This document shows positions 2,573 through 37,934 of a stretch of 64,000 bases of DNA, in pieces. The position numbers and the translations under genes are program-made. The DNA is from Escherichia coli (GTDB lineage: Bacteria; Pseudomonadota; Gammaproteobacteria; Enterobacterales; Enterobacteriaceae), in the NCBI RefSeq assembly GCF_050320075.1, contig NZ_CP190021.1; one strand, given 5' to 3'. Position 1 is the stretch's first letter, and each line of letters starts with the position of its first letter. Under the pieces are notes generated by a model that did not search any database, was not told where the DNA came from, and worked only from the letters and a program-made list of their open reading frames with translations.

Positions 2573-3421
2573 ATGAATAATGATGAGCTGGCCACCAGAC
2601 GTGCGCAGGCGATTGCCGAAGACAGGTGTTTCTCGAAAGGACGTTTGCGCGATGAATTCAGAATGAAACCAGCCCCCGGTGCTGAGCCGGTTAAGTGGTA
2701 TAAAAACACTTATGGTGGCAGGTTCGCTGTATACCGAATTGCAGACTGTGTTCCGATGCGTGAGAAACGCCCTCTGACGAGTAAACAACAGCTGGCTGGC
2801 CAGCGACTTTCCGTTTTATCCAGACTTAACAGCACCAGTGGCCGGATGGCACGGCAGGCATATGACTGGCTGAGTCTGGCACCGCTCTTTCTGGATACTG
2901 AAACGACAGGACTGGATAATACCGCGGAAGCCCTGGAAATCGGCCTGACCGATGCGGCCGGTCAGGTGGTATTTGAAACCAGGCTGAAGCCCACGGTCGC
3001 CATCGGGGCGCAGGCCGCCGCTGTGCATGGTATCAGCGAGCAGGCTCTCTGCGGCGCACCATCATGGACAGATGTGGCGCGGCAACTGCGTCATGCAATC
3101 GGGGACCGACCAGTAATTATCTTTAATGCCCGGTTCGACATCCGCATTCTGAAACAGACTGCTGCCGCACATAGCGATCCGGCTGACTGGCTGGAAGAAC
3201 TGACGGTATATTGTGCGATGGAGCTGGCTGCAGGATATTATGGGGCCACCAACCGCTATGGCACGATTTCACTGGCCTGTGCTGCCAGCCAGGCCGGACT
3301 GACCTGGGAAGGGCAGGCACACTCAGCGATCGCCGACGCACGGATGACGGCAGGGGTGGTAAACGCTATTGCTGCATATCATCTGGAACTGCTGCAGGAA
3401 CAGGCACGGCTGAAAATCTGA
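2573..3421 (+). CDS. yacC: DnaQ-like DEDDh 3'-5' exonuclease domain protein (YacC)
   Basis: 282-aa ORF with Exo I motif (LFLDTETTGLD) and a C-terminal H-x4-D motif (HSAIAD). Confidence 0.7.
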   Translation: MNNDELATRRAQAIAEDRCFSKGRLRDEFRMKPAPGAEPVKWYKNTYGGRFAVYRIADCVPMREKRPLTSKQQLAGQRLSVLSRLNSTSGRMARQAYDWLSLAPLFLDTETTGLDNTAEALEIGLTDAAGQVVFETRLKPTVAIGAQAAAVHGISEQALCGAPSWTDVARQLRHAIGDRPVIIFNARFDIRILKQTAAAHSDPADWLEELTVYCAMELAAGYYGATNRYGTISLACAASQAGLTWEGQAHSAIADARMTAGVVNAIAAYHLELLQEQARLKI

Positions 3422-3492
3422 CCGCCTGGCCTGTATACCGCAATCATTTACGTTATCCAGACGTAAATCCGCCGCTTGTTGCTGTCAGCATG

Positions 3493-3524
3493 TTAATGCT
3501 AATGTATGTGTACATTAGCATTAA
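3493..3524. repeat. Perfect 14-bp inverted repeat with 4-bp spacer (TTAATGCTAATGTA-TGTG-TACATTAGCATTAA)
   Basis: Read directly from sequence between yacC and the Tn21-type IR. Confidence 0.8.
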
Positions 3525-3624
3525 TGAGGGATGATATGTGAGAGACAAAACCAGGGAGGCCATGCGGCTTTTTTTAGGCGGCAGGTGCTACACGGCTGAA
3601 AAACTTGAAAAGGATTATCTGGCT

Positions 3625-19742: not shown

Positions 19743-20426
19743 ATGTCCCGTTTTGTCCTCGGTAACTGCATCGATGTTATGGCCCGTATCCCTGATAACG
19801 CCATTGATTTCATCCTCACCGACCCGCCATATCTCGTCGGTTTCCGTGACCGTTCCGGGCGCACCATCGCCGGCGATAAAACCGATGAGTGGCTGCAACC
19901 GGCCTGTAATGAAATGTTCCGCGTACTGAAAAAAGACGCGTTAATGGTGAGCTTCTACGGCTGGAACCGCGTCGATCGCTTTATGGCCGCCTGGAAAAAT
20001 GCGGGATTCAGCGTTGTTGGTCACCTGGTCTTCACCAAAAACTACACATCGAAGGCCGCATATGTGGGCTATCGCCACGAATGCGCCTACATCCTGGCAA
20101 AAGGCCGTCCACGTCTGCCACAAAACCCGCTGCCGGACGTGCTGGGCTGGAAATATTCGGGCAATCGCCATCACCCGACGGAAAAGCCCGTTACCAGCCT
20201 GCAACCGCTGATTGAGAACTTCACACACCCGAACGCAATTGTGCTGGACCCGTTTGCAGGCAGCGGCTCAACCTGCGTCGCCGCCCTCCAGTCCGGACGC
20301 CGGTATATCGGTATCGAGCTGCTTGAGCAGTATCACCGTGCCGGGCAGCAACGCCTTGCCGCCGTGCAACGGGCCATGCAGCAGGGGGCCGCGAATGATG
20401 ACTGGTTTATGCCGGAGGCTGCGTAA
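19743..20426 (+). CDS. Orphan beta-class DNA amino-methyltransferase (N6-adenine or N4-cytosine)
   Basis: Motif IV DPPY at residues 27-30 precedes motif I (LDPFAGSGST) near the C-terminus; no restriction endonuclease gene adjacent. Confidence 0.85.
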   Translation: MSRFVLGNCIDVMARIPDNAIDFILTDPPYLVGFRDRSGRTIAGDKTDEWLQPACNEMFRVLKKDALMVSFYGWNRVDRFMAAWKNAGFSVVGHLVFTKNYTSKAAYVGYRHECAYILAKGRPRLPQNPLPDVLGWKYSGNRHHPTEKPVTSLQPLIENFTHPNAIVLDPFAGSGSTCVAALQSGRRYIGIELLEQYHRAGQQRLAAVQRAMQQGAANDDWFMPEAA

Positions 20427-21974: not shown

Positions 21975-22315
21975 AAGGACGTCGCCGCCGGCTCCGCTTT
22001 ACCCGGCCATGCAGGGCATGGCCTTGTGGTTTTTCAGTTATGTGGCCGCCGTGTCGTGTGCGGGCTGTGCCGTGCCTCCATCTTAGCCGGGCTGGCAGGG
22101 ATGCAAGGGTACGCTTCGCCGCTGCGGTCACCCGGTCCCTCCTTCCCGTCTGCCGTGATTTTCCGGTCGTTCACCCGCTCAGATTTCGCGGTCTCACCCT
22201 CCAACTCCCGCCAGCCGTGTGCGTCAGGCTGCGGCTTCCCTTGCGCCCTGTGCATCCCCACCTTATCGCCCGGCTTTTATGGAGGCACGGCACCGCCCGG
22301 TGTCGCGGAATATGT
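21975..22315. repeat. Leading-region repeat family A, copy 1 (~340 bp), candidate ssDNA promoter (Frpo/ssi-like)
   Basis: Near-identical to 28922-29265; ends immediately upstream of the KlcA-like gene. Confidence 0.65.
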
Positions 22316-22335
22316 GAACAACGGAGGAAAACATC

Positions 22336-23620: not shown

Positions 23621-24125
23621 CTTCGGCTCCCGGCTGCCTGGCGGCATCCGGTCGTCAGGCCCGACTCCGACAGGCAGCTGCTGGCGCACCCGCCAGTCTC
23701 CGCCGAACCCGCTGGCGCGGTTTCGGGCTGCCGCTACGGTCCGATGCGTGAAAACCCGGCTTGCAGCGACCGTTCCGGTCGCGCCGCCCCTGTCGCGCCG
23801 TGACCTGCGCTCCCTGCACACCTGACGGTGTGTGAGGAAACTGCGCCTGATGGCGCAGCAGTCTTCCCTCCTGCCACCACCCCTGCGGCCTGTTTCCCGC
23901 TGTGGACTTTCCGGGGGGCAGACGTAACCCCCTCCCGTTCCATCTGTCCAGGGTGAGATGCACCGGCCACAAAATTTTTAGCCATGAACCCGGCTAAAAA
24001 TTTTGCGTCCGCCCCCGGACAGCTGTCCCGTGAGGCGGTAAACGGGCCCCCATCGGAAAGGTCCACTGCGGGGAGAAACCCCTGTGAAGTGGACGGCAGG
24101 AGGAGCTTTCGCTCCTCTGAAGGGG
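23621..24125. repeat. Leading-region repeat family B, copy 1 (~505 bp), candidate ssDNA promoter upstream of ssb
   Basis: Highly similar to 29964-30465 and partly to 33013-33345; contains a 14-bp perfect hairpin CAAAATTTTTAGCC-N8-GGCTAAAAATTTTG. Confidence 0.65.
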
Positions 24126-24186
24126 CACATGAACGTCCCGTCGCCGGTATCCGGTTTATCTCACATCTTTCAGTCAGGAGGTTCTT

Positions 24187-28921: not shown

Positions 28922-29265
28922 AAGGAAGTCGCCGGCGGCTCCGCTTTTACCCGGCCATGCGGGGCATGGCCTTGTGGGGTTTCAGCTCTGTGGCCTCAGC
29001 GTCGTGTGCGGGCTGTGCCGTGCCTCCATCTTAGCCGGGCTGGCAGGGATGCAAGGGTACGCTTCGCCGCTGCGGTCACCCGGTCCCTCCTTCCCGTCTG
29101 CCGTGATTTTCCGGTCGTTCGTCCGCTCAGGTTTCGCGGCCTCACCCTGCAACTCCCGTCAGCCGTGTGCGTCAGGCTGCGGCTTCCCTTGCGCCCCTGC
29201 ATCCCCGCCTTATCGCCCGGCTTTTATGGAGGCACGGCACCGCCCGGTGTCGCAGAACATGTGAC
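28922..29265. repeat. Leading-region repeat family A, copy 2, candidate ssDNA promoter upstream of ardA
   Basis: Near-identical to 21975-22315. Confidence 0.65.
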
Positions 29266-29281
29266 TATGGAGGATTCGGGA

Positions 29282-29782
29282 ATGTCTGTTGTTGCACCTG
29301 CTGTATACGTTGGAACCTGGCACAAATACAACTGTGGAAGCATCGCCGGACGCTGGTTTGACCTGACCACGTTTGATGATGAGCGCGACTTTTTCGCCGC
29401 CTGCCGTGCTCTTCACCAGGATGAAGCCGATCCTGAACTGATGTTTCAGGATTATGAGGGATTCCCGGGGAATATGGCCTCTGAATGCCATATCAACTGG
29501 GCCTGGGTTGAAGGCTTCCGCCTGGCACGGGATGAAGGCTGCGAAGAGGCTTATCGTCTCTGGGTGGAGGATACCGGTGAGACGGATTTTGACACCTTCC
29601 GCGATGCCTGGTGGGGCGAGGCTGACAGTGAGGAGGCTTTTGCGGTTGAGTTCGCCAGTGATACCGGCCTGCTGGCTGACGTGCCGGAGACGGTGGCGCT
29701 CTATTTTGACTATGAGGCGTATGCGCGGGATTTATTCCTGGACTCCTTCACCTTTATTGACGGTCATGTGTTCCGTCGGTGA
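29282..29782 (+). CDS. ardA: Anti-restriction protein ArdA (type I R-M inhibitor)
   Basis: 166-aa acidic protein [38 protein letters not shown]...; the track ORF 28892-29782 extends upstream through the repeat. Confidence 0.95.
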
Positions 29783-29963
29783 TTTACTCCCCCGCTCCGG
29801 CGGGGGTATGGCCTGCCAGGCCGCCGGAAAACCCTGGCAGGCTTACGCCTGCCTGAAATGCAGGAGGGCCGCGCCTGCGGCGCTGCCCTTCCTGCCCGTC
29901 ATGGTGTGAGGCATTTTTCTGTTATGTCGTTTCTGTTGTTCTGATTTCCGGAGGCGGGGACAC

Positions 29964-30465
29964 CTTCGGCTCCCGGCTGCCTGGCGGCATCCGGTCGTCA
30001 GGCCCGACTCCGACAGGCAGCTGCTGGCGCACCCGCCAGTCTCCGCCGAACCCGCTGGCGCGGTTTCGGGCTGCCGCTACGGTCCGATGTCTGAAAAACC
30101 AGGCTTGCAGCGACCGTTCCGGTCGCGCCGCCCCTGTCGCGCCGGAAACGGCGCTCCCTGCACACCTGACGGTGTGTAAGGCCACTGCGCCTGATGGCGC
30201 AGTCAACCCTTCCGCCGCCACCCCTGCGGCCTGTTTCCCGCTGTGGACTTTCCGGGGGCTGGAGTAACCACATCCCGTTTCAGCAGTCCAGGGGAAGATA
30301 TACCGTCCACAAAATTTTTAGCCATAAACCCGGCAAAAAATTTTGCGTCCGCCCCCGGACAGCTGCCCCGTGACGTGGTGACGGACGCCCCATCGGAAAG
30401 GTCCACTGCGGGGAGAAACCCCGAAGAAGTGGACGGCAGAAGGGGCTTTCGCCCCTCCGGGGAGC
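29964..30465. repeat. Leading-region repeat family B, copy 2
   Basis: Aligned by eye to copy 1 over ~500 bp. Confidence 0.65.
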
Positions 30466-30510
30466 AACCGGTCGGCCCGGCGACCTGATTCAGCAGAAGG
30501 AGACGTTTTC

Positions 30511-30945
30511 ATGACAGTCAGCAGCACGATTTCCGTTTTTTGCCGCGACGGGGTGTTCCGTACCGTTTACTGCCACCTGCACGGGGAGCCGACCTGGAAC
30601 GGTCGCATCCTGCATACCCACTATGCCACCGGTCAGCAGGCCGAAGCCCTGGTTGAACACGGTGATATCCGTTGCCTCGGTCCCCGTTGCGACAAACCCG
30701 CCGGGCATACGCTTCAGAACCCGGTGGACGGTGTGACGGCTTATTACGGACGTGACAGTGGTTTCCGGATGGACAGTGAGGCGCGTGAGTACCGTTCTTT
30801 CAGGGAGGCTATTGCCACTGAAAGCACTGAAGAGGTGCGCTTCCATTATGTGTTCATCGACGGCTACTGGAAGGTGATGTACCGCACGCCGGAAGGCTGG
30901 AAGATGAAAGCGCTCGCGCTGGCACTGCGTCGCTGTCCGAAATGA
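30511..30945 (+). CDS. Hypothetical protein
   Basis: 144-aa ORF with GAAGGAG RBS directly after repeat B2. Confidence 0.6.
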   Translation: MTVSSTISVFCRDGVFRTVYCHLHGEPTWNGRILHTHYATGQQAEALVEHGDIRCLGPRCDKPAGHTLQNPVDGVTAYYGRDSGFRMDSEAREYRSFREAIATESTEEVRFHYVFIDGYWKVMYRTPEGWKMKALALALRRCPK

Positions 30946-31038
30946 AAAAAAGGCAGGGCGATAAACCCTGCCTCTCTCCGCCGGCGCTTCCCCGCCAGGA
31001 AGTCCGGCATCTCAATCACTATCTATGGAGATTATGCC

Positions 31039-31305
31039 ATGAGACCATCAATTATCTTCGCAACCGCCGAGTATGTAAAGCGTCTGCGTGAAGAGTGCCT
31101 GCGGGAGAATAAACCCCTGCACCGCCATACCCGCTTCAGACGTCAGGAGCTGGCACAGGATGAGATTAACCCGGACGTCCTGGCGATGAGCGGCCATATC
31201 GCCAGACGCTGCAGTGAGCAGAAGCGGGTGCGTATCCCCGCTATGAAAGTCAGCGAATGGGGCCACCTGCTCCGCGCGCTTGAAATTGAGCGGGTCTGCC
31301 ACTGA
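31039..31305 (+). CDS. Hypothetical small basic protein
   Basis: 88-aa ORF upstream of the Rpn-like gene. Confidence 0.45.
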   Translation: MRPSIIFATAEYVKRLREECLRENKPLHRHTRFRRQELAQDEINPDVLAMSGHIARRCSEQKRVRIPAMKVSEWGHLLRALEIERVCH

Positions 31306-31369
31306 TTAACCCTTGCCGTCTGCCTGTGCAGGCGGCAGGATACGTTCAGACATCTCACCAGGAGGAACC

Positions 31370-32308
31370 GTGAGTCAGAAGAAAACCACCACGACGCCCA
31401 CGCCGCATGATGCCGCGTTCCGGTCGTTCCTGGCGAATCCCGACGTCGCCAGAGATTTTCTGGAACTGCATCTTCCGGCGGAGTACCGGCAGTTGTGCGA
31501 CCTGTCCACGCTGAAGCTGGAACCCGCCACCTTTGTTGAGCCGGACCTGCATCAGTACGCCAGCGATATCCTCTGGAGTGTGAAAACCACCGGGGGTGAA
31601 GATGGCTATGTTTATACGCTCATCGAGCACCAGAGCACCGAAAATCTGTACATGCCTTTCCGCATGTTACGTTACAGTGTGGCGGCGATGCAGAGACATC
31701 TGGAGCAGCACAAAACGTTGCCACTGGTGATTCCTGTACTGTTCTATCATGGTGAGCGCAGCCCGTACCCGTACAGCATGAACTGGCTGGACTGTTTTGA
31801 GAATCCGGCACTTGCGGCTAAAATATACACAAAGCCGTTTCCGCTGGTTGATATCACTGTCGTTGATGACAATGAAATCATGAACCATCGCCGGATGGCC
31901 GCACTGACGCTGCTGATGAAGCATATCCGCCATCGTGACATGATGGAGCTGCTGGACAAACTCCCGCAGGTCATGGTGGAAATTTCAGACGAGCAGGTGC
32001 GTGTTCTGATTCATTACATCGTTAACGCAGGGGACTCTGTATCACCGGAATTTATGCGGGCGCTGGCTGAGCGTCTGCCGCAGCATGAGGATAAACTGAT
32101 GACTATCGCAGAACGTCTTGAGCAAAAAGGTCGCCAGGAGGGCAGGATGGAAGGACGCATGGAAGGACGCATGGAAGGACGCATGGAAGGAGCGCTTGAA
32201 AAAGCCCTGGCTATTGCGTGCCAGCTTCAGAAAATGGGGATGACGCCGGAGCAGATTAAGCAGGCTACCGGACTTTCCGATGACGAACTGAAGAAAATCA
32301 CTCACTGA
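31370..32308 (+). CDS. Rpn (YhgA-like) family PD-(D/E)xK nuclease/recombination-promoting protein
   Basis: GTG at 31370 with GGAGG RBS; N-terminal TPHDAAFRSFL, core YVYTLIEHQSTEN...FRMLRYSVAAMQRHL, recognised from memory as the YhgA/Rpn family. Confidence 0.75.
   Translation: MSQKKTTTTPTPHDAAFRSFLANPDVARDFLELHLPAEYRQLCDLSTLKLEPATFVEPDLHQYASDILWSVKTTGGEDGYVYTLIEHQSTENLYMPFRMLRYSVAAMQRHLEQHKTLPLVIPVLFYHGERSPYPYSMNWLDCFENPALAAKIYTKPFPLVDITVVDDNEIMNHRRMAALTLLMKHIRHRDMMELLDKLPQVMVEISDEQVRVLIHYIVNAGDSVSPEFMRALAERLPQHEDKLMTIAERLEQKGRQEGRMEGRMEGRMEGRMEGALEKALAIACQLQKMGMTPEQIKQATGLSDDELKKITH
32141..32188. repeat. In-frame 12-bp tandem repeat (GGACGCATGGAA x ~4) encoding (EGRM)n inside the Rpn-like gene
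   Basis: Read directly from sequence. Confidence 0.9.
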
Positions 32309-32314
32309 GTAAAC

Positions 32315-32345
32315 ATCACAGCCCGGCAAAATGCCGGGCTTTTTT
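32315..32345 (+). terminator. Rho-independent terminator after the Rpn-like gene
   Basis: AGCCCGGCA-AAA-TGCCGGGCT stem followed by TTTTTT. Confidence 0.7.
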
Positions 32346-32369
32346 GTCAGCAGGAGCAGAGCAAATAGC

Positions 32370-32528
32370 ATGACGATTGCAGAACGTCTTATTCAAAAAG
32401 GCGCACTTGAAGTGGCGCGGGAAATAGCCTGCCGGCTGCGGGATATGGGCTGGACGCCGGAACGGATTCAGGAGGCAACCGGACTTTCCGGTGAAGAACT
32501 GAAAAAGCTGTTTCCTGATGAGCAGTAG
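32370..32528 (+). CDS. Small protein duplicating the C-terminal module of the Rpn-like protein (RpnS-like candidate)
   Basis: 52-aa ORF MTIAERLIQKGALEVAREIACRLRDMGWTPERIQEATGLSGEELKKLF..., parallel to the Rpn tail MTIAERLEQKG...ALAIACQLQKMGMTPEQIKQATGLSDDELKK. Confidence 0.55.
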   Translation: MTIAERLIQKGALEVAREIACRLRDMGWTPERIQEATGLSGEELKKLFPDEQ

Positions 32529-32558
32529 CCTGGCATTCAGCCAGGCTGTGAATCACGC

Positions 32559-32810
32559 TCACACATCCTCTGCCGTTTCCCCCAGTTCATTTTCCAGTCG
32601 CCTGATGATATCTGCCTTACGCATCCCCTGCATGTGAGGCAGCAGGTCACGGACTGAAAGTGCCTGGGTGGTCCTCCAGACGGTGACGTCCACCTGTTCC
32701 GCATTTTCCCAGGCGTGCCATGTTCTCTGCGTCACGCCAAATTCTCTGGCCGCTTTTTCGCGTGACCAGAGCATGCTTTTTCGCCAGATTCGCAGTTCCC
32801 AGCCGGTCAT
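32559..32810 (-). CDS. Small HTH DNA-binding protein (Cro/Xre-like)
   Basis: 83-aa ORF with EFGVTQRTWHAWENA HTH-like segment; twin palindromes in its 5' region. Confidence 0.6.
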   Translation of the reverse strand: MTGWELRIWRKSMLWSREKAAREFGVTQRTWHAWENAEQVDVTVWRTTQALSVRDLLPHMQGMRKADIIRRLENELGETAEDV

Positions 32811-32824
32811 AAAACACCTTTGAA

Positions 32825-32912
32825 AAAGTGAAAAAACTTCACTTTATTTTATCATCACAATTGCCAAATCAGCGCGATAAATAAGTGTAAAAAAGTGAAG
32901 AAATTTCACTTT
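32825..32912. promoter_or_regulatory. Two palindromic operator candidates AAAGTGAA-N5-TTCACTTT (32825-32845 and 32892-32912)
   Basis: Identical 8-bp arms in both copies, 67 bp apart, read from sequence. Confidence 0.6.
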
Positions 32913-33012
32913 TTTTGCTTGTAAATGTCGTGCGGTTTTCTCTGTTTTCACCTGTGCGGGAGTGGTGTGCCAGTGACCACCACATGCCATTGTTGTGCCG
33001 TCGTTTTTCTTC

Positions 33013-33345
33013 AGTCGCGCCGTATGCGGCGCTCCCTGCACACCTTACGGTGTGTAAGGCCACTGCGCCTGATGGCGCAGCTGTCTCTGCCTGTCTGCCG
33101 CCGCACTGCGGCCTGTTCTCCGCAGACGGACTTTCCGGGGGTACATACATGACCACATCCCGTTTCAGTCGTCCAGGGGGGAGATGTACCAGCCACAAAA
33201 CTTTTTGCCGCAGGCGTCAAAAACTTTTGCGTCTGCCCCCGGACAACTGCCCCGTGACGTGGTGAGCGTCCCCCGTCGGAAAGGTCCACTGCGGGGAAAT
33301 CCCCGAAGACCCGGACGGCAGAAGGAGCTTCGCTCCTCCGGGAAA
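33013..33345. repeat. Leading-region repeat family B, copy 3 (partial, 3' two-thirds)
   Basis: Aligns to 23792-24125 of copy 1, including a degenerate version of the hairpin. Confidence 0.6.
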
Positions 33346-33389
33346 TGACCTGGCTGTCCCGGCAGTCGTGACGATGAGGAGACAATGTG

Positions 33390-34238
33390 ATGAATCAGAC
33401 TTTACCCACTGCTGACCTGAATACTGCCGGCACGACAGATGTTATTCCGTCTGTGGCTATCGACCGCATCATCGCGCAGCGTAACGAAGGTATTGCACTG
33501 TTCATGCAGGCGATGGAATGCCTGGCGACAGCGCGCAAGATTCTGCTCGATGCGTCAGGTGATATTTTTCTTTACGGGTTTGAAGACTGCGTGACTGATT
33601 CCGTTCGTCGCATAGATAAACCGGAAGAAGCGAAAAGGAATATCACCCGTCTTGCCGACCGGAAAATCTGGGACCGCCTGATGACAGATACGGGCATGTA
33701 CACCTTCATGAGTTCATGCCAGCGTGATGAGTGGAACAGCCAGCTGATGAGCGACACCTGTCCTGAAATCACCCTGGACAATGTACTGGCAACATTCCGC
33801 CATCTGAATGCCTGCAAGATGCAGACATTTGAACAGGGACTGATTGATGTCTACCGGAAATTGTCATGGGATTACAGAACCAATAATCCCTGCCGTCTGG
33901 GTAAGAAAATCATTATTGAAAACCTGCTGTACCGCTGGAGTAACGGGCGTGTGACGCTGGACTGCAGCGGACGGGAGGCACTGGATGACCTGGTACGTCC
34001 GTTTTATCTGCTGGAGGGGCGCAACGTTCCTGACTTCAGGAACAGTATCGGGGCGCAGTATGGTGAATTTCTCGGGAACGGCGACAATGTCGGTAAGCTG
34101 TTAGAAGGGGAATATTTTACGGTGCGTGGCTACCAGAAAGGGACCGTACACATTGTCTTTAAGCGTTCTGACCTTGTTGAAAAACTGAATGATATTATTG
34201 CACGGCATTATCCAGGTGCATTGCCGCCACGAGTCTGA
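33390..34238 (+). CDS. Hypothetical protein, last leading-region gene before oriT
   Basis: ATG at 33390 with GAGGAG RBS (track ORF 33387-34238 starts at a GTG one codon earlier). Confidence 0.6.
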   Translation: MNQTLPTADLNTAGTTDVIPSVAIDRIIAQRNEGIALFMQAMECLATARKILLDASGDIFLYGFEDCVTDSVRRIDKPEEAKRNITRLADRKIWDRLMTDTGMYTFMSSCQRDEWNSQLMSDTCPEITLDNVLATFRHLNACKMQTFEQGLIDVYRKLSWDYRTNNPCRLGKKIIIENLLYRWSNGRVTLDCSGREALDDLVRPFYLLEGRNVPDFRNSIGAQYGEFLGNGDNVGKLLEGEYFTVRGYQKGTVHIVFKRSDLVEKLNDIIARHYPGALPPRV

Positions 34239-34243
34239 TTAAA

Positions 34244-34282
34244 CAGAAAAGCCCTGGTATTTATGCCGGGGCTTTTTTTTCT
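34244..34282 (+). terminator. Rho-independent terminator
   Basis: AAGCCCTGG-loop-CCGGGGCTT stem followed by a T8 run. Confidence 0.7.
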
Positions 34283-34323
34283 GTAATCATCATAATCTCA
34301 GAACACGATGTGACATTGTCACA

Positions 34324-34665
34324 TCAATTGTTGTTCATATCGATGCCATCTTTCCTGCCTGAATCTGTCTTTTTAGGTGCTGTTTTAGAGGAAGAACGGC
34401 GGGATGGTTTTTTCGATTCTGCTTCCCGAATAATGTCACGAAGTGCCTTCTCTCCTACTTCATACCCTGCATTTTTGAGCGTGTCACGAACATCTGCCAG
34501 TGTATAACCCTTTGTCCTTACCAGGACAATAATGTCATCACGAATGGCATCAAGAAAATCACGCAATGTTTTCCGTTGAGCGGTGAGATCTGGCAATTCC
34601 GATAAAGCAGCTTTTGCCAGCTGGATGTCATCATCTGAGTAAAATTTTTTAGAAGCCATTGGCAC
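34324..34665 (-). CDS. Hypothetical protein with basic C-terminal tail, divergent from nikA next to oriT
   Basis: 113-aa ORF ending ...KKPSRRSSSKTAPKKTDSGRK... Confidence 0.5.
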   Translation of the reverse strand: MPMASKKFYSDDDIQLAKAALSELPDLTAQRKTLRDFLDAIRDDIIVLVRTKGYTLADVRDTLKNAGYEVGEKALRDIIREAESKKPSRRSSSKTAPKKTDSGRKDGIDMNNN

Positions 34666-34718
34666 TTTCTCTCCGTTTCATGTTGAAGTCTGATTTTATC
34701 ATCAAAAACTGACTCCTG

Positions 34719-34846
34719 GCAGGGCTGCGCCCTGCCTCTGCCGTCTGCATAAGACTATGATGCACAAAAATAACAGGCTATAATGGCCTGAAAAACGGGA
34801 CAGGATGTGCAATTGTATAACCGCGCACGCGCGATTATACAATTGC
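34719..34846. other. oriT: oriT region: 8-bp perfect inverted repeat (GGCAGGGC-TGC-GCCCTGCC, 34719-34737) and 18-bp imperfect inverted repeat (34809-34846) upstream of nikA
   Basis: Inverted repeats read from sequence; position upstream of nikAB matches IncI1 oriT organisation. Confidence 0.65.
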
Positions 34847-34891
34847 CTCCTGGTCAGGGCTTCGCCCCGACACCCCAGTAAGGAGCTGACC

Positions 34892-35224
34892 GTGAGTGAT
34901 AAACGTCAAAGAAGTGGTAGTGAAAGACGGCAAAAGACGATCCTGAGAGCGGTCCGGTTCTCACCGGATGAGGATGAAACTATCTGTAAGAATGCTGAAG
35001 ATTCCGGACTTACTGTATCTGCTTACATCCGAAATGCAGCACTGAATAAGCGAATTAACTCCCGTACAGATGATGCTTTTCTGAAGGAGTTAATGAGACT
35101 GGGAAGGATGCAGAAGCATCTGTTTGTTCAGGGAAAAAGAACCGGTGACAAGGAATACGCAGAAGTGCTTGTTGCCATAACCGAACTTACAAATACATTG
35201 CGTAAACAGTTAATGGAAGGTTGA
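34892..35224 (+). CDS. nikA: oriT-binding relaxosome protein NikA
   Basis: 110-aa product from GTG 34892 with AGGAG RBS; the track ORF 34805-35224 is an upstream extension. Confidence 0.85.
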   Translation: MSDKRQRSGSERRQKTILRAVRFSPDEDETICKNAEDSGLTVSAYIRNAALNKRINSRTDDAFLKELMRLGRMQKHLFVQGKRTGDKEYAEVLVAITELTNTLRKQLMEG

Positions 35225-35234
35225 GGATTCTCCG

Positions 35235-37934
35235 GTGAATGCAGTCATTCCGAAAAAGAGAAGGGACGGCAAGTCTTCGTTCGAAGACCTGGTATCCTAC
35301 GTCTCTGTCCGGGATGACATGACCGATGAGGAACTGGATTTATCTTCTTCTTCGCAGGCTGAACAACCGCACCGAAGCCGTTTCAGTCGCCTTGTTGATT
35401 ATGCGACACGTCTTCGAAATGAGTCATTCGTGGCGCTGGTTGATGTCATGAAGGACGGCTGCGAATGGGTCAACTTTTATGGTGTCACCTGCTTTCATAA
35501 CTGTACTTCTCTTGAAACTGCCGCTGCAGATATGGAGTACATTGCCCGGCAGGCACACTATGCAAAAGATGACACTGACCCTGTTTTTCACTACATCCTT
35601 TCCTGGCAGTCACATGAAAGCCCGCGTCCGGAACAGATTTATGACAGTGTACGTCATACGCTGAAATCACTCGGCCTTGCCGACCATCAGTATGTCTCTG
35701 CCGTGCATACTGATACAGATAATCTGCACGTCCATGTGGCTGTTAACCGGGTACACCCTGAAACGGGTTATCTGAACCGGTTATCATGGAGTCAGGAAAA
35801 ACTCAGTCGTGCCTGCCGTGAGCTTGAACTGAAGCATGGTTTTGCTCCGGATAACGGTTGCTGGGTCCATGCGCCGGGAAATCGTATCGTTCGCAAAACT
35901 GCCGTTGAACGTGATCGCCAGAACGCCTGGACACGCGGAAAAAAACAAACTTTTCGTGAGTATGTTGCGCAGACAGCGGTCGCTGGTTTACGCAGTGAAC
36001 CTGTACATGACTGGTTATCCCTGCATCGTCGTCTTGCGGAAGATGGTCTGTACCTGTCTCAGATGGACGGAAAATTTCTGGTGATGGATGGCTGGGATCG
36101 CAACAGGGAAGGTGTACAGCTTGACTCGTTTGGTCCCTCCTGGTGTGCAGAAAAACTCATGAAAAAAATGGGTGACTACACGCCAGTGCCAAAAGACATT
36201 TTCAGCCAGGTGGAAGCACCAGGACGCTATAATCCGGACTTCATTGCAGCTGATGTTCGCCCGGAAAAAATCGCTGAAACAGAAAGTCTGCAGCAGTATG
36301 CCTGTCGTCATCTTGGAGAACGTCTGCCGGAAATGGCACGGGAAGGACGGCTGGAAAACTGCCTGGCTATTCACCGCACACTGGCTGAAGCGGGATTATG
36401 GATGCGTGTTCAGCATGGTCACCTGGTTATCTGTGACGGTTATGATCATAACCAGACTCCCGTTCGTGCTGACAGCGTATGGTCACTGCTGACGCTCGAC
36501 AATGTGAATCAACTCGATGGTGGCTGGCAGCCTGTACCAACAGATATTTTCCGCCAGGTTACGCCAACAGAACGCTTCCGTGGTCGTCGTATGGAGAGCT
36601 GTCCTGCGACCGATAAAGAATGGCACCGTATGCGTACAGGTACGGGGCCGCAGGGGGCTATCAAACGCGAACTGTTTTCTGACAAAGAAAGTCTGTGGGG
36701 ATACAGCATCAGCCATTGTAGCCCTCAGATTGAAGAAATGATCACACAGGGTGAGTTTACCTGGCAGCGTTGTCATGAGTTGTTTGCACAACAGGGACTG
36801 ATGCTACAGAAACAACATCACGGGCTTGTTGTCGTTGATGCTTTTAATCATGAGCAAACGCCGGTGAAAGCCAGCAGCATTCATCCTGATCTGACACTGG
36901 GGCGTGCGGAGCCACAGGCCGGACCTTTTGTGAGTGCTCCAGCAGATTTGTTTGACAGGGTGCAACCTGAAAATCGCTATAACCCGGAGCTGGCTGTCAG
37001 TGACAGGTACGGGGTCAGCAGTAAACGTGACCCAATGCTGCGCCGGCAGCGACGTGAAGCCAGGGCTGAGGCCCGTGCTGACCTGCGTGCCCGCTATCTG
37101 GCATGGCGTGAACAATGGCGTAAACCGGATCTGCGTTATGGGGAACGTTGTCGGGAAATTCATCAGGCATGCCGTCTGCGGAAGTCACACATTCGTGCGC
37201 AGTACGATGATCCGGCATTACGTAAGCTGCATTATCACATTGCAGAAGTTCAGCGAATGCAGGCATTGATCAGGCTGAAAGAAGACATCAGGGATGAGCG
37301 ACAGAAACTTATTGCTGACGGGAAATGGTATCCACCCTCTTACCGTCAGTGGGTCGAAATTCAGGCTGCTCAGGGAGACAGGGCTGCTGTATCGCAGTTG
37401 AGAGGCTGGGATTATCGCGATCGCCGTAAAGACAAGTCACGCACAACGACGACAGACCGCTGTGTCGTGCTTTGTGAACCGGGCGGAACGCCGGTATACG
37501 GTAATACCGGTGATCTCGAGGCCCGTCTGCAGAAGAACGGGAGTGTTCGTTTCCGTGACCGTCGGACGGGAGAGTTTGTCTGTACGGATTATGGTGACAG
37601 AGTTGTTTTCCGTAATCACCATGACCGCAATGCGCTGGCAGATAAACTGGATTTGATTGCACCGGTATTATTCGGGCGTGATCCACGCATGGGGTTTGAA
37701 CCAGAAGGAAACGACAAACAATTTAACCAGGTCTTTGCTGAAATGGTTGCCTGGCATAATGTGACAGGCCGTACCGGTCACGAAGACTACAGGATTACGC
37801 GACCGGACGTGGATCATCACCGTGAAGGAAGTGAACGCTACTACCGCGATTATATCGCGGCGAACAGCAACGATGACGCATCACTGCCTCCGCCGGAGCA
37901 GGATAAACGCTGGGAACCGCCTTCTCCAGGTTAA
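35235..37934 (+). CDS. nikB: Relaxase NikB (MOBP family)
   Basis: 899-aa ORF immediately after nikA; histidine triad region HTDTDNLHVHVAVNRVH. Confidence 0.9.
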   Translation: MNAVIPKKRRDGKSSFEDLVSYVSVRDDMTDEELDLSSSSQAEQPHRSRFSRLVDYATRLRNESFVALVDVMKDGCEWVNFYGVTCFHNCTSLETAAADMEYIARQAHYAKDDTDPVFHYILSWQSHESPRPEQIYDSVRHTLKSLGLADHQYVSAVHTDTDNLHVHVAVNRVHPETGYLNRLSWSQEKLSRACRELELKHGFAPDNGCWVHAPGNRIVRKTAVERDRQNAWTRGKKQTFREYVAQTAVAGLRSEPVHDWLSLHRRLAEDGLYLSQMDGKFLVMDGWDRNREGVQLDSFGPSWCAEKLMKKMGDYTPVPKDIFSQVEAPGRYNPDFIAADVRPEKIAETESLQQYACRHLGERLPEMAREGRLENCLAIHRTLAEAGLWMRVQHGHLVICDGYDHNQTPVRADSVWSLLTLDNVNQLDGGWQPVPTDIFRQVTPTERFRGRRMESCPATDKEWHRMRTGTGPQGAIKRELFSDKESLWGYSISHCSPQIEEMITQGEFTWQRCHELFAQQGLMLQKQHHGLVVVDAFNHEQTPVKASSIHPDLTLGRAEPQAGPFVSAPADLFDRVQPENRYNPELAVSDRYGVSSKRDPMLRRQRREARAEARADLRARYLAWREQWRKPDLRYGERCREIHQACRLRKSHIRAQYDDPALRKLHYHIAEVQRMQALIRLKEDIRDERQKLIADGKWYPPSYRQWVEIQAAQGDRAAVSQLRGWDYRDRRKDKSRTTTTDRCVVLCEPGGTPVYGNTGDLEARLQKNGSVRFRDRRTGEFVCTDYGDRVVFRNHHDRNALADKLDLIAPVLFGRDPRMGFEPEGNDKQFNQVFAEMVAWHNVTGRTGHEDYRITRPDVDHHREGSERYYRDYIAANSNDDASLPPPEQDKRWEPPSPG

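Follow-up and report, generated by a model that had tools for sequence, protein, structure and literature searches.

We analyzed a stretch of 64,000 nucleotides of Escherichia coli DNA (contig NZ_CP190021.1, hereafter the window), which is part of an IncI1 resistance plasmid (I-complex, MOBP/MPF_I), and focused on the segment adjacent to its origin of transfer (oriT). Our results make it likely that this segment forms the end of the IncI1 leading region closest to oriT, where two unrelated units stand back to back: the single-stranded DNA (ssDNA) promoter ssi1 with the gene ygfB, and the gene of a putative repressor, yggA. An earlier note on this DNA had pointed to two open reading frames (ORFs) and to a partial copy of a repeat, repeat B, in front of the first of them. 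These observations were largely confirmed with some corrections, and their interpretation was partly supported. All the elements concerned have already been catalogued (ssi1, the YgfB/YdiA DUF4942 family and YggA/Orf35), and the window contains no new discovery.

The 2.5 kb around these elements are 100% identical to pSH1148_107 and to many IncI1 plasmids of Salmonella and E. coli, and 1907 plasmid records contain at least 80% of this region. The gene order annotated in pSH1148_107 is ssb-...-psiB-psiA-...-ardA-...-Rpn nuclease-helix-turn-helix (HTH) regulator (minus strand)-DUF4942 protein (plus strand)-'MobC' (minus strand)-nikA/'mobA'-nikB-trbCBA. Both ORFs are present at the positions previously given, and both are conserved in related plasmids, on which the earlier proposals had been made to depend.

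The oriT core (34795-34877, minus strand) was located by reading the sequence directly, by an inverted-repeat search, by conservation and by mapping the annotated oriT of pESBL (70354-70436) through the start of nikA (PMC4288162). Its nick region, ACAGGAT, is at 34800-34806 (ATCCTG|T on the minus strand). The core also contains two inverted repeats, one of 18 nt (34809-34846) and one of 8 bp (approximately 34853-34871), and it lies next to nikA (34892-35224) and nikB (35235-37934). The exact position of the nick is presumed from the IncP-type consensus. Because the minus strand carries this IncP-type nick motif and the plus strand encodes all of the classical leading genes (ssb, psiB and ardA), the minus strand is the transferred strand. 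This orientation agrees with the rule published for ColIb-P9 and pESBL (PMC12672017). The minus strand would enter the recipient 5' end first, from about 34800 toward lower coordinates, and would serve as the template for the plus-strand genes, which include ygfB. The gene at 33390-34238, ygfB, had been presented as the nearest to oriT on the leading side. This is not the case: yggA lies nearer, and ygfB is the nearest gene templated by the transferred strand. For yggA, the transferred strand is the coding strand, and therefore yggA would not be transcribed before the complementary strand is synthesized. Judging from this arrangement, ygfB would be the first gene available for transcription while the incoming DNA is still single-stranded.

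The ssi1 element and its hairpins

Repeat B is present in three copies in the window: B1 (approximately 23621-24160), B2 (approximately 29964-30500) and B3 (33013-33345, minus strand). B3 is 81% identical to B2 over 335 nt (E = 3e-83) and 80% identical to B1 over 331 nt (E = 8e-72), which is far above chance. It also shares 74% identity (E = 5e-11) with the Frpo element of the F plasmid (18756-18866 of record L002), and the three repeats and the two Frpo elements of F can all be aligned. We aligned the transferred strands of these five elements and derived a consensus fold. In this fold, 89.2% of the cells are paired, compared to 40-47% after shifting the partners by 1-3 columns, and 36 of the 128 pairs have changed on both sides (4-11 after the shift); none of 500 shuffles reaches the observed values. 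In B3, the consensus fold consists of a long imperfect hairpin, which probably constitutes the promoter-forming stem (33094-33322, minus strand; AT-rich apex at 33210-33216), and of three small GC-rich distal hairpins on the same strand (33062-33081, 33034-33059 and 33017-33032). The entire promoter hairpin of about 230 nt is kept in B3 with compensatory changes, and the transferred strand of B3 folds as DNA with -110.4 kcal/mol (z = -8.0).

Repeats B1, B2 and B3 are the elements already named ssi3, ssi2 and ssi1, respectively. It has been described that ssi3 belongs to the ssb operon, that ssi1 is the nearest to oriT and that three leading-region operons are transcribed from ssi3 to ssi1 (PMC10104558). 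B3 is homologous in sequence to Frpo of F and to ssi1-3 of ColIb-P9 (Masai & Arai 1997; Bates et al. 1999; Couturier et al. 2023; Wen et al. 2025), its transferred strand forms a long imperfect hairpin like theirs, and it is likewise placed upstream of, and co-oriented with, leading genes. It lies upstream of ygfB, a leading gene templated by the transferred strand, and it represents the oriT-proximal Frpo-type (class 1) ssDNA promoter, which would function on the transferred strand and drive ygfB. In pESBL, three class-1 ssDNA promoters (ssi1-3) were reported, from RNA-seq and 5' rapid amplification of cDNA ends, to be transiently transcribed from ssDNA in the recipient, with mapped start sites and the strongest early induction (PMC12672017). 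The gene spacing of pESBL is the same as in the window (end of Hp21 at 68367 and start of Hp22 at 68947; PMC4288162).

It had been proposed that only the 3' two-thirds of repeat B precede ygfB and that this natural deletion variant could reveal which part of the repeat is functional. The former is correct as a statement about the sequence: the homology of B3 begins at approximately 33013, and B1 and B2 share about 170 nt more on the 5' side. The latter is a fair reading: B3 retains the long hairpin, complete and supported by covariation, and three of the four small hairpins, and may thereby mark the functional core. The bulk of the sequence absent from B3 belongs to an unrelated flanking module, and of the Frpo-type unit only one small hairpin is truly gone. 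This fourth hairpin is invariant in ssi3 (23758-23788), in ssi2 (30102-30132) and in both F elements, Frpo1 and Frpo2, and the homology of the F elements stops about 45-60 nt past the breakpoint of B3.

The flanking module that B3 also lacks is a GC-rich, multi-hairpin extension of about 125 nt (23621-23747 in B1 and 29964-30093 in B2), whose two copies are 98% identical. It has no counterpart in the F plasmid's leading region, and it is found with at least 95% identity in at least 5000 plasmids. A 55-nt piece of this extension (84% identity) was also detected upstream of the DUF4942 operon of pOXA-48 (record L006, 6477-6530), where it is not accompanied by Frpo homology. From these sequences, we read the extension as a separate module outside the Frpo-type unit, which might be a priming signal or another ssDNA signal. 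Apart from this 55-nt match, no Frpo-type hairpin was found directly upstream of DUF4942 in pOXA-48, nor was one found upstream of DUF4942 in an IncFIB/MOBH plasmid (L007), where folding is not unusual.

The loss of a hairpin that is otherwise invariant, together with a G in place of T in the apex motif GCAAAAT, might suggest that B3 is a decayed, non-functional remnant and that ygfB is expressed from an ordinary double-stranded DNA promoter. This is very improbable. The full long hairpin is retained with its compensatory changes, and the short form is the conserved state: it is present in about 1900 IncI1 records, and a plasmid with a YggA of only 74% identity still has it at 98% identity. 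In addition, the start sites mapped in pESBL belong to three class-1 promoters in the same layout, and our promoter scan yielded no sigma-70-like promoter upstream of ygfB on the plus strand. One result does count against the interpretation of B3 as an ssDNA promoter: a hexamer scan of the five aligned transferred strands returned only weak -35/-10 candidates (GGGACA-18-CAAAAT), none of which passed the filter in B3.

YgfB and the DUF4942 family

The gene ygfB (also ydiA; Hp22 in pESBL) is located at 33390-34238 on the plus strand and is preceded by a ribosome-binding site (GAGGAG, 33375-33380). The gene is real, but the length of 283 aa previously attributed to it is obtained only from the GTG at 33387; the ATG at 33390, which is the RefSeq start, yields 282 aa. 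The protein matches PF13708 (DUF4942) over its full length (E = 2.4e-50; 171.3 bits relative to a gathering cut-off of 25; 185 of 190 profile positions). Its family contains 1998 clusters at 50% identity (E ≤ 0.001), and homologues were found in at least 5000 plasmid records, 92% of which are predicted to be conjugative. Members of DUF4942 are located in the leading regions of IncI and IncL plasmids, including pOXA-48, where the gene has the same orientation as ssb and klcA, as well as in phage early regions and, as L0010, in the KlcA-RadC-CbtA module of enterobacterial genomic islands. DUF4942 corresponds to family 24 of Samuel et al., with 2171 members, a median position of 1 from oriT and a false discovery rate of about 0. 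YgfB is a full-length member of this family, its first position from oriT and its strand match the family medians, and no feature distinguishes it.

Remote homology searches and structure prediction, which had been suggested for both proteins, returned little beyond the family itself in the case of YgfB. Apart from DUF4942, searches of Pfam, NCBIfam, PHROGs and PADLOC yielded only PHROGs that either have the label 'methyltransferase' or lack an assigned function, and one spurious PADLOC match; a sequence profile search of the PDB gave 0 matches at E ≤ 10. The predicted structure is confident and consists of long helices and small sheets, and a fold search of the PDB detected no solved relative. 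Among members with about 30% identity, several polar residues are invariant or nearly so (D90, W94, Y162, N165, D200, R203, D215, R217, H254 and N267). This pattern suggests one defined site and not a variable specificity surface.

A link to DNA modification comes from phages. Proteins of about 460-560 aa from phages and metagenomes contain DUF4942 as their N-terminal half, followed by a catalytic domain with the motifs EPSAGxGAI and NPPF. The closest solved relative of this catalytic domain is M.TaqI (E = 4e-7), but the C-terminal recognition domain of TaqI is absent. The phage fusions (phiPSA1 gp22, Marinomonas phage P12026_32, PHROG 6263) share DUF4942 with YgfB at about 25-38% identity, whereas YgfB ends after DUF4942 and does not possess the TaqI-like catalytic domain (EPSAGxG, NPPF). 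The genomic contexts of the fused-form genes were seen on short metagenomic contigs only. We also considered whether the fused domain is of the type of M.EcoGIX, which is encoded in the same leading region as ygfB (19743-20426), and rejected this: M.EcoGIX is of another class, which is circularly permuted (DPPY ... DPFAGSGS), and the similarity is confined to motifs. The likeness between the neighbour of a phage DUF4942 gene and the 144-aa gene driven by ssi2 was not significant.

Our best guess is that YgfB acts as an early establishment or anti-defence factor on the modification/restriction axis. Several results weigh against this role. No relationship of YgfB to known anti-restriction or anti-CRISPR proteins (ArdA, KlcA/ArdB, ArdC, Acr) was found in Pfam, NCBIfam, PHROG or the PDB fold search, and the table of Samuel et al. 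gives 'NA' for all 2171 family members against the anti-restriction and anti-CRISPR sets. Transposon insertions in Hp22 of pESBL were neutral for transfer from E. coli to E. coli in transposon-insertion sequencing (TnSeq; PMC4288162). Finally, the slot following ssi1 is occupied by a different gene in some I-complex plasmids. In one of them (L011, whose YggA is 66% identical), an ssi1-like repeat (2869-3198) is followed by an unrelated 109-aa gene (3239-3527) that belongs to no family and replaces DUF4942. Because of this replacement, the first expressed slot next to oriT seems to accept interchangeable cargo genes.

In a narrower form of the anti-defence reading, YgfB would be a DNA-binding or target-recognition module without a catalytic domain of its own, which either shields the incoming plasmid DNA from restriction or recruits or redirects a methyltransferase in trans (M.EcoGIX or the Dam of the host). 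We regard this as possible but rather unlikely. The position of DUF4942 in the phage proteins, N-terminal to a TaqI-like catalytic domain that is devoid of the TaqI recognition domain, would fit such a module, as would the first expression of ygfB from ssDNA, when restriction is the main threat. However, the strong conservation of D90, D200, D215, H254, N267, R203 and R217 is unusual for a specificity domain, and the isoelectric point (pI) of YgfB, 6.0, is neither mimic-like nor strongly basic. Moreover, M.EcoGIX resembles the fused domain at the level of motifs only, being of the permuted class, and pOXA-48 possesses DUF4942 with no methyltransferase annotated in the stretch of its leading region that was examined. 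An evolutionary extension of this idea is doubtful: DUF4942 would be a new fold that was once the DNA-recognition half of phage orphan adenine methyltransferases and that, freed from the catalytic domain in conjugative plasmids and islands, became a stand-alone anti-defence effector and the first product of the ssDNA promoter. If this were true, such an effector might occupy or mark the incoming DNA or hijack a methyltransferase or restriction complex of the host, and the 'first slot' between ssi1 and oriT might be an exchangeable cassette site for effectors of this kind.

That YgfB is itself a DNA methyltransferase, as implied by some record names ('methyltransferase domain protein', 'DNA methyltransferase'), by UniProt names collected by Samuel et al. 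and by the match to PHROG 6263 ('DNA methyltransferase'), is extremely improbable because its 282 aa present neither motif I (xPxAGxG) and motif IV ((N/D)PP(F/Y)) nor, in the predicted fold, a Rossmann-type PDB match, while the PHROG match is limited to the non-catalytic half of the profile (positions 26-286 of 548), and Pfam and NCBIfam return no methyltransferase.

YggA and the DNA flanking oriT

The second unit consists of yggA (Hp23 in pESBL; 'MobC' of IncL/M; Orf35 of pCTX-M3), located at 34324-34659 on the minus strand. The ORF had been described as 113 aa long (34324-34665). It is real when read from the GTG at 34665, but the homologues and the RefSeq start point to the ATG at 34659 and to a protein of 111 aa. 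The protein is composed of a helical core (residues 9-82) and of a disordered basic tail (about 86-111). The tail is rich in lysine, arginine and serine, as had been noticed, with a pI of 10.4. Residues 1-85 are conserved among homologues, whereas the sequence of the tail, disordered in the model, varies. The AlphaFold2 model places helices at residues 9-21, 32-49, 54-63 and 70-82, with a predicted local distance difference test (pLDDT) score of 81-88 in the core.

The YggA family is small, with 128 clusters among 5.8 billion proteins, and its members, named YggA or, in IncL/M, 'MobC', occur exclusively in enterobacterial plasmid-type records, from the I-complex and from IncL/M. The copy of pOXA-48 is 38% identical over 73 aa (BLASTP, E = 1e-12), and the order yggA-oriT-nikA-relaxase is kept in three diverged I-complex plasmids (L010-L012) and in pOXA-48. 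The RefSeq entry WP_000157095.1, which covers thousands of records, bears the name 'molybdopterin-guanine dinucleotide biosynthesis protein MobC'. This name seems to have arisen by wrongly expanding the plasmid gene name mobC; the protein is unrelated to molybdenum cofactor synthesis or to the MobC of PF05713.

The most informative homologue is Orf35 from pCTX-M3, an IncM plasmid ('MobC' of pOXA-48-type plasmids), for which 32% identity and 53% similarity to the YggA of R64 have been reported. Orf35 and YggA are of the same size class, have a basic tail and occupy the same place, divergent from nikA across oriT. Deletion of orf35 in pCTX-M3 increased the nikA, nikB and traH mRNA by 40-, 23- and 80-fold, respectively, and the mobilisation of an oriT plasmid by more than 200-fold, and conjugation was not lowered (PMC6112013). 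In pESBL, TnSeq classified insertions in Hp23 (YggA) as non-essential for transfer (0.99) and nikA and nikB as required (1.00) (PMC4288162). Judging from its homology with Orf35, the most likely function of YggA is to repress the relaxosome operon, and perhaps its own gene, and not to assist nicking. The tail of the protein had been taken as a sign of DNA binding, and the protein as a possible accessory relaxosome or silencing factor; the guess of DNA binding and silencing agrees with Orf35 (PMC6112013), and the accessory role is not supported.

The role of YggA as an accessory relaxosome protein of MobC type, which would aid NikA and NikB in nicking oriT, is improbable. Its location directly beside oriT, its basic tail and the name 'MobC' in IncL/M and RefSeq records are consistent with such a role. 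However, the insertions in Hp23 were neutral for transfer, conjugation of the orf35 deletion mutant is normal and its mobilisation of oriT plasmids is improved, no match to the MobC family PF05713 was obtained at E ≤ 0.1, and the molybdopterin form of the name is the apparent mis-expansion mentioned above.

The assignment of YggA as a repressor also has results on the other side. Repression of nikAB(-tra) has been demonstrated only for Orf35 of pCTX-M3 (PMC6112013). In IncM plasmids, nikAB is fused to the tra operon, so that Orf35 controls the whole transfer operon, whereas nikAB stands alone in IncI1; because nikAB is not fused to tra in R64-type plasmids, the phenotype of Orf35 may not fully carry over to YggA. 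The model of YggA is moderate overall (pLDDT of 69), and the searches yielded no Pfam or NCBIfam family, no PDB sequence match and no significant fold match. The best in-context matches in Foldseek were the HTH domains of R388 StbA and ArdK; these and a match to sigma region 4 were not significant (E of 1.6-3.4). Profile matches were all sub-threshold (Clr5 and the N-terminal regions of IS3 and IS21 transposases). StbA of R388, an HTH protein beside oriT that tunes conjugation, is likewise small, helical and adjacent to oriT on the leading side, but the similarity to YggA is an analogy only (Foldseek E = 1.6, probability of 0.66, not significant; no sequence similarity).

The DNA between yggA and nikA contains several candidate regulatory elements. 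A putative yggA promoter with a palindrome extends over 34693-34736 (minus strand): the extended -10 element TGATAAAAT (34701-34693) was detected at the same place in four I-complex plasmids by promoter scan and alignment, and the palindrome GGCAGGGC-N3-GCCCTGCC (34718-34736) covers the -35 region. This palindrome has been kept by a compensatory change in a Pectobacterium plasmid (L012), and we propose it as a candidate operator. A conserved TATAAT (34779-34784) faces nikA. In the 64 kb, the motif CAGGGCTNCGCCC has only two occurrences, which lie on either side of the oriT core.

The oriT core is also flanked by a direct repeat (AAyTGmCTCCTGG(T)CAGGGCTkCGCCC, about 26-27 nt) at 34707-34732 and 34841-34867. 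The right copy includes the known 8-bp inverted repeat of oriT. The left copy overlaps the -35 region of yggA, beyond the limits of the minimal oriT, and is a candidate for an operator of YggA or for a second hairpin signal on the transferred strand.

Neighbouring features and proposed role in plasmid establishment

The convergent genes ygfB and yggA share a bidirectional intrinsic terminator (34251-34273, both strands), supported by folding and by a U-run on each strand. On the plus strand, it folds with -25.9 kcal/mol (z = -5.8) and is followed by U8; on the minus strand, the same stem is followed by UUUUCUGUUU. A second hairpin (34307-34325) lies directly 3' of the stop codon of yggA. Scanning 29500-35500 with Rfam gave a single match, sub-threshold, on the terminator.

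On the other side of ssi1, two perfect palindromes AGTGAA-N5-TTCACT (32827-32843 and 32894-32910) are located 67 bp apart, just upstream of the Xre-type HTH regulator gene (32559-32810, minus strand), where they border on the truncated end of B3; about 0.14 chance matches are expected in the window. These palindromes are probably the operator of the HTH regulator, and the layout of gene and palindromes recurs in the diverged I-complex plasmids L011 and L012. RefSeq also annotates a 65-aa hypothetical protein of no family (WP_001161115.1; 32844-33041, minus strand) that overlaps the palindromes and the small distal hairpins of ssi1, which is likely a spurious gene call. Further away, the Rpn/YhgA-like (Transposase_31) gene (31313-32308) presents a tandem EGRM x4 repeat near its C-terminus, and the 65-aa ORF that follows it (32331-32528) duplicates its C-terminal ~36 codons (32187-32295 vs 32398-32506; 75% identical). 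A second repeat family, with copies at 21998-22317 and 28946-29264 that are 94-96% identical, lies upstream of a klcA-like antirestriction gene (22336) and of ardA (approximately 29282), and matches the published 'class 2' ssDNA promoters of pESBL.

If the two units are read together, the events of conjugation could unfold as follows. The minus strand would be nicked at approximately 34800 and would enter the recipient with its 5' end first, toward lower coordinates. After about 1.8 kb have entered, the B3/ssi1 segment would fold into the hairpin of about 230 nt and mimic a duplex sigma-70 promoter, from which the RNA polymerase of the host would transcribe ygfB off the single strand, as published work on ssDNA transcription suggests; this promoter would be lost upon synthesis of the complementary strand. 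YgfB would be among the first plasmid proteins made in the new host and would most likely act there as an establishment or anti-defence factor on the DNA-modification/restriction axis. Its domain corresponds to the non-catalytic half of the phage TaqI-like adenine methyltransferases, and YgfB itself is predicted to be unable to methylate. Expression of yggA would begin only once the plasmid is double-stranded, from its own extended -10 promoter beside oriT. YggA, presumably a small helical DNA-binding repressor as suggested by its homology with Orf35 of pCTX-M3, would then hold down the divergent promoter of nikA-nikB, probably through one or both of the conserved palindromes flanking oriT.

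The remaining interest of this region lies in the function of DUF4942 and its apparently unprecedented fold, and in the regulatory role of YggA in IncI1. These plasmids are major carriers of extended-spectrum beta-lactamase (ESBL) genes in E. coli and Salmonella, and the first proteins made in a new host decide the survival of the plasmid against host defences. YgfB and DUF4942, which occupy the first expressed slot and are distributed across thousands of conjugative plasmids, islands and phages, give screens for anti-defence functions a clearly defined target. YggA could plausibly act as a brake on the expression of the relaxosome, and the strong effect of removing Orf35 on mobilisation bears on the prediction of how co-resident mobilisable plasmids spread.

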